A DNA stretch of 13,959 nucleotides, taken from the NCBI RefSeq assembly GCF_003334315.1, contig NZ_QOWR01000079.1; one strand, given 5' to 3'. The notes under the pieces are model-generated. The model made no database searches and had not been told where the DNA came from. It saw only the letters and a list, made by a program, of their open reading frames with translations. Below, piece by piece: positions 8,699-11,188 of this stretch. Every line of letters starts with the position of its first letter. Position 1 is the first letter of the stretch. This stretch comes from Escherichia coli. Lineage in GTDB: Bacteria; Pseudomonadota; Gammaproteobacteria; Enterobacterales; Enterobacteriaceae. The position numbers and the translations under genes are program-made.

Positions 8699-10243
8699 AT
8701 GGCTGACTCACAACCCCTGTCCGGTGCTCCGGAAGGTGCCGAATATTTAAGAGCGGTGCTGCGCGCGCCGGTCTACGAAGCGGCGCAGGTCACGCCGCTA
8801 CAAAAAATGGAAAAGCTCTCGTCTCGTCTTGATAACGTCATTCTGGTGAAGCGCGAAGATCGTCAGCCAGTTCATAGCTTTAAGCTGCGCGGCGCATACG
8901 CCATGATGGCGGGCCTGACGGAAGAACAGAAAGCGCACGGCGTGATCACTGCTTCTGCGGGTAACCACGCGCAGGGCGTCGCGTTTTCTTCTGCGCGGTT
9001 AGGCGTGAAGGCCCTGATCGTTATGCCAACCGCCACCGCCGACATCAAAGTCGATGCGGTACGTGGATTCGGCGGCGAAGTGCTGCTTCATGGCGCGAAC
9101 TTTGACGAAGCGAAAGCTAAAGCGATCGAACTGTCACAGCAGCAGGGGTTCACCTGGGTGCCGCCGTTCGACCATCCGATGGTGATTGCCGGGCAAGGCA
9201 CGCTGGCGCTGGAACTGCTCCAGCAGGACGCCCATCTCGACCGCGTATTTGTGCCAGTCGGCGGCGGCGGTCTGGCGGCGGGCGTTGCGGTGCTGATCAA
9301 ACAACTGATGCCACAAATCAAAGTGATCGCCGTAGAAGCGGAAGACTCCGCCTGCCTGAAAGCAGCGCTGGATGCGGGTCATCCGGTTGATCTGCCGCGC
9401 GTAGGGCTATTTGCTGAAGGCGTAGCGGTAAAACGCATCGGTGACGAAACCTTCCGTTTATGCCAGGAGTATCTCGACGACATCATCACCGTCGATAGTG
9501 ATGCGATCTGTGCGGCGATGAAGGATTTATTCGAAGATGTGCGCGCGGTGGCGGAACCCTCTGGCGCGCTGGCGCTGGCGGGAATGAAAAAATATATCGC
9601 CCTGCACAACATTCGCGGCGAACGACTGGCGCATATTCTTTCCGGTGCCAACGTGAACTTCCACGGCCTGCGCTACGTCTCGGAACGCTGCGAACTGGGC
9701 GAACAGCGTGAAGCGTTGTTGGCGGTGACCATTCCGGAAGAAAAAGGCAGCTTCCTCAAATTCTGCCAACTGCTTGGCGGGCGATCGGTCACCGAGTTCA
9801 ACTACCGTTTTGCCGATGCCAAAAACGCCTGCATCTTTGTCGGCGTGCGCCTGAGCCGCGGCCTCGAAGAGCGCAAAGAAATTTTGCAGATGCTCAACGA
9901 CGGCGGCTACAGCGTGGTGGATCTCTCCGACGACGAAATGGCGAAGTTGCATGTGCGCTATATGGTCGGCGGGCGTCCGTCACATCCGTTGCAGGAACGC
10001 CTCTACAGCTTCGAATTCCCGGAATCACCGGGCGCGCTGTTGCGCTTCCTAAACACGCTGGGTACGCACTGGAATATTTCTTTGTTCCACTATCGCAGCC
10101 ACGGTACCGACTATGGGCGCGTGCTGGCAGCGTTCGAACTCGGCGACCATGAACCGGATTTCGAAACCCGGCTAAATGAGCTGGGCTACGATTGCCACGA
10201 CGAAACCAATAACCCGGCGTTCAGGTTCTTTTTGGCGGGTTAG
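8699..10243 (+). CDS. ilvA: Biosynthetic threonine deaminase / threonine dehydratase (514 aa)
   Basis: Protein MADSQPLSGAPEGAEYLRAVLRAPVYEAAQVTPLQKMEKL... contains the PLP-binding region (SFKLRG) and a C-terminal regulatory domain. Two tandem ATGs at 8696 and 8699; I call the second, which gives 514 aa. The first overlaps the ilvD stop (taATGATGG). Confidence 0.93.
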   Translation: MADSQPLSGAPEGAEYLRAVLRAPVYEAAQVTPLQKMEKLSSRLDNVILVKREDRQPVHSFKLRGAYAMMAGLTEEQKAHGVITASAGNHAQGVAFSSARLGVKALIVMPTATADIKVDAVRGFGGEVLLHGANFDEAKAKAIELSQQQGFTWVPPFDHPMVIAGQGTLALELLQQDAHLDRVFVPVGGGGLAAGVAVLIKQLMPQIKVIAVEAEDSACLKAALDAGHPVDLPRVGLFAEGVAVKRIGDETFRLCQEYLDDIITVDSDAICAAMKDLFEDVRAVAEPSGALALAGMKKYIALHNIRGERLAHILSGANVNFHGLRYVSERCELGEQREALLAVTIPEEKGSFLKFCQLLGGRSVTEFNYRFADAKNACIFVGVRLSRGLEERKEILQMLNDGGYSVVDLSDDEMAKLHVRYMVGGRPSHPLQERLYSFEFPESPGALLRFLNTLGTHWNISLFHYRSHGTDYGRVLAAFELGDHEPDFETRLNELGYDCHDETNNPAFRFFLAG

Positions 10244-10251
10244 GGAAAAAT

Positions 10252-10277
10252 GCCTGATAGCGCTTCGCTTATCAGGC
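10252..10277. repeat. REP-like (repetitive extragenic palindrome) hairpin between convergent ilvA and ilvY
   Basis: Perfect 8-bp inverted repeat gcctgata / tatcaggc with a 10-nt loop. The sequence gcctgatagcgcttcgcttatcaggcttacc resembles the E. coli REP consensus (...cttatcaggcctac). Confidence 0.6.
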
Positions 10278-10294
10278 TTACCCGCGCGACAACG

Positions 10295-11188
10295 TCATTT
10301 GTGGTTCGGCAAAATCTTCCAGAATGCTTCAATCAGCGGCTCATGTAGCCGCTTTTTCTGCGCACAAACGCCCAGCTCAAACGGCGTTTTCTCATCGCTG
10401 CGCTCTAAAATCATCACGCGGTTACGCACCGGTTCCGGGCTGTTTTCCAGCACCACTTCCGGCAACAGCGCCACACCACAGCCGAGCGCCACCATCGATA
10501 CCATCGCTTCATGCCCGCCAACCGTGGCGTAAATCATCGGGTTGCTGATTTTATTGCGTCGAAACCACAGTTCAATGCGGCGACGCACCGGTCCCTGATC
10601 GGCCATGATAAACGGCACTGTAGACCAGTCCGGCTTCTCTGCCGAAACCTGGTTACGCACCGGGCAGGGCAGCGCGGGCGCAATCAGCACTACTGCCAGA
10701 TTCTCCAGCATCGAAAACGCCACAGCGCCGGGTAGCGTCTCCGGTTTCCCGGCAATCGCCAGATCCGCTTCTCCCGTGACCACTTTTTCCATTGCATCTG
10801 CCGCATCACCAGTGGTGAGTTTGATCTCCACCGACGGGTGTTCCGCGCGGAAGCGATCCAGAATCGGCGGCAGATGGCTGTAGGCAGCGGTCACCGAGCA
10901 GAAGATATGTAATTCGCCAGAGAGCGACGGCCCTTGCTGATCGATGGTGTGGCGCAATTGCTGATACTGCAACAGCGTTTGCTGGGCGAAAACGCGCAGC
11001 TCTTCGCCCGCTTCCGTCAGCGTTACCGTGCGGTTATCGCGCACAAATAGCGGCTGACCAAGATCTTCTTCCAGGCGCTGAATCTGCCGTGAGAGCGTGG
11101 ATGGGCTAACGTGCATCGCCCGCGCGCTGCGGCCAAAATGGCGGCTTTCCGCCAGATGCAGGAAGGTTTTCAGATCGCGTAAATCCAA
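10295..11188 (-). CDS. ilvY: LysR-family activator of ilvC, IlvY (297 aa)
   Basis: Protein (M)[63 protein letters not shown]... Start assigned to TTG (plus-strand caa at 11186-11188), preceded by a GAGGG Shine-Dalgarno, which gives the canonical LysR N-terminus and the recalled 297-aa length. The ORF-track start at 11272 would add 28 residues and overlap the ilvC promoter. Confidence 0.88.

Follow-up and report, generated by a model that had tools for sequence, protein, structure and literature searches.

A point-mutated REP in the convergent ilvA/ilvY spacer of Escherichia coli

The genes ilvA and ilvY of E. coli run toward each other and are separated by a short spacer that contains a palindrome. 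REP elements, their targeting by IS621 and their presence/absence polymorphism are already known, and the ilvA-ilvY junction was itself studied experimentally in 1989. What the palindrome at this junction is, how it came to be there and what it does to the two converging transcripts are the questions that we address here, using a stretch of 13,959 nt of E. coli DNA (the window). Positions 10000-10600 of the window are 100% identical to strain CP53, which we used as the window's own genome.

A REP hairpin in the spacer

The ilvA gene ends with a TAG at 10241-10243 on the plus strand and ilvY with a TGA at 10297-10295 on the minus strand, which leaves between the converging stops exactly the 51-bp spacer, 10244-10294, that had been predicted. 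The features of the junction are as follows.

10244-10294, no strand: ilvA/ilvY spacer, 51 bp between the two stops; an insertion relative to a 4-nt stop-codon overlap that is presumably ancestral
10252-10281, minus strand: solitary REP of the short z2-like class, reading GTAA + GCCTGATAAGCGAAGCGCTATCAGGC on the minus strand and GCCTGATAGCGCTTCGCTTATCAGGCTTAC on the plus strand
10252-10259, no strand: 5' arm of the stem, GCCTGATA, perfect 8-bp inverted repeat
10270-10277, no strand: 3' arm of the stem, TATCAGGC, perfect 8-bp inverted repeat
10260-10269, no strand: hairpin apex, with a 3-bp stem GCG/CGC, a 3-nt loop and one bulged base
10235-10243, plus strand: left arm of an outer stem, GCGGGTTAG, made of the last ilvA codons and the stop; pairs with CTTACCCGC at 10277-10285
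10278, no strand: C-to-T change relative to K-12, CTAC to TTAC (GTAG to GTAA); the IS621 target ATCAGGCCTAC becomes ATCAGGCTTAC, with core CT changed to TT
10282-10294, no strand: flank CCGCGCGACAACG, possibly the decayed 3' arm of a second, inverted REP, from an alignment made by eye

The 8-bp perfect stem of the original prediction is found as the inverted repeat GCCTGATA/TATCAGGC at 10252-10259/10270-10277. Above it, GCG at 10260-10262 pairs with CGC at 10266-10268, and the bulged base is T10269 on the plus strand or the corresponding A on the minus strand, an asymmetry of the stem that is typical of REPs; binding by TnpA_REP needs a mismatch in the stem (PMC3333891). The hairpin has a dG of -14.4 kcal/mol on either strand. 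Relative to shuffles, the fold of 67 nt has a z of -2.1 and five of the 200 shuffles fold equally well, so the structure by itself is only modestly unusual. An outer 9-nt inverted repeat, GCGGGTTAG/CTTACCCGC, joins the end of ilvA and its stop codon to the tail of the REP, and the composite hairpin that includes it folds at -25.3 kcal/mol.

The palindrome had also been described as filling the spacer almost entirely, which is overstated: the hairpin takes up 26 nt and the whole REP 30 nt, or about 60% of the 51 nt. The REP lies wholly between the two stop codons and is thus extragenic. Its stem starts at 10252, 8 nt past the ilvA TAG (10243); on the other side, the ilvY stop is 13 nt away from the GTAA and 17 nt away from the stem, a borderline distance with respect to the 16-nt rule considered below.

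REPs are defined as imperfect palindromes of 30-40 nt with a conserved 5' GTAG and fall into types y, z1 and z2; in K-12, 84 of 584 are solitary (Ton-Hoang et al. 2012, PMC3333891). The element in the window has the expected size and architecture (30 nt, stems of 8 bp and 3 bp, one bulged base). The window contains the head/tail pattern GCCTGAT..ATCAGGCYTAC of REPs a single time, and 200 shuffles of it yield no instance. Aligned ungapped with the gdhA-ynjI REP of the window's genome, the K-12 allele of our element is identical at 28 of 30 positions and the window copy at 27 of 30, and the K-12 allele differs from the published REP query GCCTGATGCGCTACGCTTATCAGGCCTACG by one gap and one mismatch. 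Similar copies are dispersed through the genome: a scan of 200 kb of CP53 found about 14 REPs, including four copies of the 29-nt class GCCTGATGCGCTACGCTTATCAGGCCTAC, which is one of the three REP queries of Durrant et al. 2024.

The window copy shares with the gdhA-ynjI REP and with GCCTGATGCGCTACGCTTATCAGGCCTACG the head GCCTGAT, the tail CTTATCAGGC.TAC, a length of 29-30 nt and a bulged stem, as well as an extragenic location just past a stop codon and an A/T-rich 5' flank. It departs from them in reading TTAC for CTAC and in two more substitutions, both in the apical stem. Unlike the short z2-like REPs that are carried in BIMEs it is solitary, being the single REP of the window, and 10282-10294 is at most the remnant of a second one. 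The palindrome is therefore strongly supported, by its match to the consensus, as one copy of the E. coli REP family, of the short z2-like class. The K-12 allele at this junction is a textbook solitary REP. The REP-type identity that had been proposed is borne out by the consensus match, by the many copies in the same genome and by a natural insertion of IS621 into an orthologous copy, described below.

A scan of 9900-10700 against Rfam at E <= 10 returned two chance-level matches and no REP family, the MG1655 record leaves REPs without annotation, the known gdhA REP included, and the RepRanger and Durrant supplements do not mention ilvA/ilvY. The lack of an Rfam match and a thermodynamic z of only -2.1 are what might be expected of a chance palindrome, or of a locus-specific regulatory hairpin unrelated to REPs. 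We give this reading a negligible probability: the sequence agrees nearly base for base with published REPs and with other REPs of its own genome, IS621 targets the REP here, and related species bear REP types of their own at the ilvA/ilvY junction. The alignment to REPs rules out a chance or unrelated hairpin.

The GTAG that is conserved in REPs is altered in the window. Orthologues in K-12, ES5 and RM10466 have GTAG/CTAC where the window has GTAA/TTAC, so that the window copy is a point-mutated REP and a member of the family by descent. Both GTAG and a C|T dinucleotide are needed for binding and cleavage by TnpA_REP (RayT) (PMC3333891), and the natural target of IS621 in REPs is ATCAGGCCTAC (Durrant et al. 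2024). The K-12-type allele carries this exact 11-nt site; conversely, the window reads ATCAGGCTTAC at 10271-10281, with a TT core that is probably unusable. Because the published GTAG and C|T requirements are both altered here, the window copy is probably inert for the RayT transposase as well as for IS621.

The orthologous REP of RM10466 is interrupted by IS621 precisely at ATCAGGCCT^AC (222-1500 of the extracted locus), and in strain 64 a frameshifted IS110-family transposase gene lies in the ilvA-ilvY gap (approximately 2538-3828 of the extracted locus). In about 180 complete E. coli genomes the match to the spacer breaks off at the IS621 site (3062 matching genomes minus 2882 full-length matches), and both of the two that we opened, RM10466 and strain 64, have an IS110-family transposase gene in the gap. 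A query spanning the REP::IS621 junction was unfit for counting occupied loci, as it also matches IS621 copies in near-identical REPs elsewhere, in up to 28 places per genome.

Presence, absence and origin of the spacer

A 57-nt query covering the spacer matched 3062 of 5426 complete E. coli genomes and left 2364 (~44%) unmatched. In JJ1886, the one unmatched genome that we opened, and in the GTDB representative of E. coli, the two stops overlap in gggTTAAtgg (741-744 of the extracted JJ1886 locus), and IlvY ends in PNH* in both, as opposed to PNHK* with the spacer. Since about 44% of E. coli genomes lack the REP, any role that it has is dispensable.

We then compared the junction among 71 representatives of enterobacterial species for which both gene ends were available. 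A 4-nt overlap of the stops (TTAA, TTAG or CTAG), with no intergenic DNA, is found in 33 of them, including K. pneumoniae, C. freundii, Yokenella, Kosakonia and Atlantibacter. Spacers of 4-97 bp, mostly REPs, two-REP BIMEs or remnants, occur in another 25. The remaining 13 have 0.47-2.0 kb between ilvA and ilvY, with whole genes. Where the stops overlap, the terminator of each gene is forced inside the other gene.

The genes lodged at the junction of other species include fabV (enoyl-ACP reductase), a gene for a TIGR02453-family protein and an ORF of about 128 aa with a hydrophobic N-terminus and no family match. The junction of E. whittamii holds an ORF of 120 aa, likewise with no family match.

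Pseudocitrobacter faecalis has a homologous spacer of 51 bp. In C. koseri, P. timonensis and S. enterica arizonae, the REP nearest ilvA is shared with E. coli and is accompanied by a second, inverted REP. The BIMEs that C. koseri, S. enterica arizonae, Pseudenterobacter timonensis and Citrobacter sp. R56 carry at this junction closely resemble E. coli in the REP next to ilvA and in the flank to its left, GGGAAAAT-GCCTGAT. Unlike these BIMEs, E. coli keeps one REP, and the second is at best represented by the 13-nt remnant at 10282-10294: aligned by eye, the CCGCGCGACAACG region and C. koseri ...GCGCCGCCATCCGGCATTAGTG match at approximately 16 of 23 positions.

The difference between strains with and without the spacer is an insertion/deletion, and we infer from the species comparison that the overlap of the stops is the ancestral state. 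A REP or BIME would thus have inserted at the junction of originally overlapping ilvA and ilvY stops and created the spacer. E. coli retains one REP, and GGAAAAAT and CCGCGCGACAACG may be the decayed remains of a larger insertion. The left flank of P. timonensis, ATGGTTCGGGAAAAT, matches the ilvY end of JJ1886, AATGGTTCGGCAAAAT, at 15 of 16 positions, which suggests that insertion of the BIME duplicated approximately 15-18 bp of its target. This left flank, ATGGTTCGGGAAAAT, which adjoins ilvA in P. timonensis and C. koseri, nearly duplicates the ilvY 3' end ATGGTTCGGCAAAAT. Within E. coli, the overlap alleles may have been retained, re-created by deletion or imported.

Between E. coli strains, divergence in the 300-nt flanks of the junction (9941-10240 and 10301-10600) amounts to 4-9%, which seems high for the species. 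The ilvA tail of K-12 is 95% identical to those of Pseudocitrobacter faecalis and Citrobacter sp. Cu233, roughly the level that it shares with other E. coli. This divergence hints at recombination or at old allelic lineages.

Transcript ends on the two strands

Two further features bear on how the converging transcripts end.

10335-10359, plus strand: hairpin AGCGGCT-CATGT-AGCCGCT followed by TTTTCT, inside the ilvY CDS (IlvY K278-L285); probable ilvGMEDA terminator
10246-10250, minus strand: run of five U, one A after the hairpin on the ilvY-sense transcript; an intrinsic-terminator-like signal read from the sequence

On the plus strand, the stem of the REP is followed by UUACCCGCG, which contains no T-tract and sets the hairpin on this strand apart from intrinsic terminators; the tables considered below list no 3' end at it. 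A terminator acting in both directions is rejected on account of this strand. The conserved terminator of the region appears to be a hairpin separate from that of the mobile repeat. It lies within ilvY, approximately 90 nt past the ilvA stop, and has a dG of -10.5. Over 64 distinct enterobacterial sequences its stem is 99.6% paired; four synonymous sites in the stem are almost invariant, while the loop and the neighbouring wobble sites vary. C. youngae ATCC 29220 shows a compensatory double change in the stem (AACGGCT/AGCCGTT), and in most species the hairpin is followed by T7. Judged by this conservation, the hairpin and T-run at 10335-10359 are probably the intrinsic terminator of ilvGMEDA. 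This predicted terminator would place the REP in the 3' UTR of ilvA.

What the REP might do for the ilvGMEDA mRNA can be considered in this context. REPs are barriers to exonucleases and protect Rho-terminated mRNAs from PNPase and RNase II. Deletion of the gdhA REP is reported to affect the stability of gdhA mRNA (Merino 1987, as cited elsewhere), and by analogy with this near-identical REP a role of the ilvA/ilvY REP in stabilising the 3' end of the ilvA mRNA is plausible. The original prediction considered the hairpin to be probably an mRNA 3'-end stabiliser or a transcriptional insulator. Insulation is not supported: some 90 nt beyond, within ilvY, is the likely terminator of ilvGMEDA, and a region of Rho termination lies antisense within ilvA.

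That the REP is kept at the junction for stabilising the ilvGMEDA 3' end or for insulating the two converging units is, in our view, unlikely. A stable hairpin 8 nt after the ilvA stop, the protection that REPs afford to Rho-terminated mRNAs and the reported effect of the gdhA REP are what such a role calls for. However, 2364 of 5426 E. coli genomes have no match to the spacer, the stops overlap in 33 of 71 species, a conserved terminator follows downstream inside ilvY, Term-seq lists no 3' end at the REP (Adams et al. 2021), and Rho termination on the minus strand takes place beyond it. The title of Sameshima, Wek & Hatfield 1989 likewise speaks of overlapping transcription and termination of ilvA and ilvY.

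The position of the hairpin raises another possibility. According to a second-hand account of Liang, Rudd & Deutscher 2015, ribosomes are stalled where a REP and a stop codon are less than 16 nt apart, and the 8 nt that separate the ilvA TAG from the stem fall within this distance for down-regulation of translation. The REP might thus lower the synthesis of IlvA, with ribosomes stalling at the ilvA stop, which is itself part of the outer stem. Although the distance rule fits, hundreds of REPs would be equally subject to this mechanism, and the rule reaches us second-hand; we regard this reading as quite improbable.

The minus strand differs. The statement that no T-tract adjoins the hairpin on either strand is correct for the plus strand, as shown by UUACCCGCG, but the ilvY-sense strand reads GCCUGAUAAGCGAAGCGCUAUCAGGC-A-UUUUU-CC. 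Likewise, that the hairpin is not an intrinsic terminator stands for the ilvA strand, which lacks a U-tract, and is doubtful for the ilvY strand, where U5 follows the hairpin. In form, as with intrinsic terminators, a G+C-based hairpin is followed here by five U within 1 nt. A consensus terminator scanner made no call at the minus-strand REP hairpin, because it allows loops of up to 8 nt and the loop here is longer unless the bulge is taken into account.

The curated Term-seq tables of Adams et al. 2021, which cover three conditions, list no 3' end on either strand in MG1655 3956700-3957099, but they also miss the terminator inside ilvY, so this negative could be due to low expression or to thresholds. 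Neither ilvA nor ilvY is mentioned in the SMRT-Cappable-seq supplements. Adams et al. 2021 report a Rho-termination region at MG1655 3956067(-), corresponding to window position ~9435 and antisense in ilvA, with a Rho score of 3.7 (p = 2e-6), and 62 reads without bicyclomycin (BCM) on the minus strand in the 800 nt just downstream of the REP. These antisense reads could stem from an unmapped promoter within the region instead of from read-through of ilvY.

The same Term-seq data contain a 3' end of class 'internal' at MG1655 3957809(-), window ~11177(-), 11 nt into the ilvY ORF. It possibly represents premature termination or processing at the start of ilvY.

One may therefore ask whether the REP is chiefly a one-directional intrinsic terminator for ilvY, formed by the hairpin and A-U5 on the minus strand, in which case strains with overlapping stops would lack such a terminator. 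The sequence GCCUGAUAAGCGAAGCGCUAUCAGGC-A-UUUUU, three G-C pairs at the base of the stem and a dG of -14.4 argue in this direction, as does our inspection of the ilvA tail, where we found no conserved hairpin and T-run for ilvY in any species examined. Against it, no 3' end is listed at MG1655 3956876-3956882(-) (Adams et al. 2021), and both reads and a Rho-dependent stop are found further downstream, antisense to ilvA. Other REP copies also bear GGCATTT or GGCAATT after the stem, so that the T-rich flank is partly a feature of the family. On balance this reading is doubtful.

We instead favour, as the probable reading, a REP that is one family repeat in an inserted spacer, that provides no insulation, is dispensable and is largely a neutral passenger with side effects at the 3' ends of the transcripts. 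Both converging transcripts would read it as a stable hairpin. In the ilvGMEDA mRNA, the REP would sit in the 3' UTR, 8 nt past the ilvA stop and upstream of the probable terminator at 10335-10359, where it could act only in the way of other REPs, chiefly by opposing 3'-to-5' exonucleases as a second barrier and possibly by hindering ribosomes at the stop codon. In the ilvY mRNA, the hairpin with A+U5 would be expected to cause partial termination, and the transcripts that read through would be ended by Rho in antisense ilvA. This amends the picture of the junction on four points: the REP is not an insulator, the ilvGMEDA terminator likely lies inside ilvY, a U-tract is present on the ilvY strand and the spacer is optional. 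The terminator embedded in ilvY, the ancestral overlap of the stops and the recurrent occupancy of the junction by REPs make a tidy but unsurprising ensemble.

A selective account can also be formulated. Gain of the REP would have given ilvY a hairpin+U5 terminator and an extra C-terminal residue and altered the antisense overrun, and the dimorphism (~56:44, with flanks 4-9% divergent) would be kept by selection on ilv regulation and not by drift. We hold this to be very unlikely. The locus could provide a clean natural pair of alleles for testing the effect of a single REP on two converging transcripts.

Upstream in the same operon, ilvG is intact in the window as an ORF of 548 aa at 3926-5572 on the plus strand; the MG1655 record annotates ilvG as a pseudogene.
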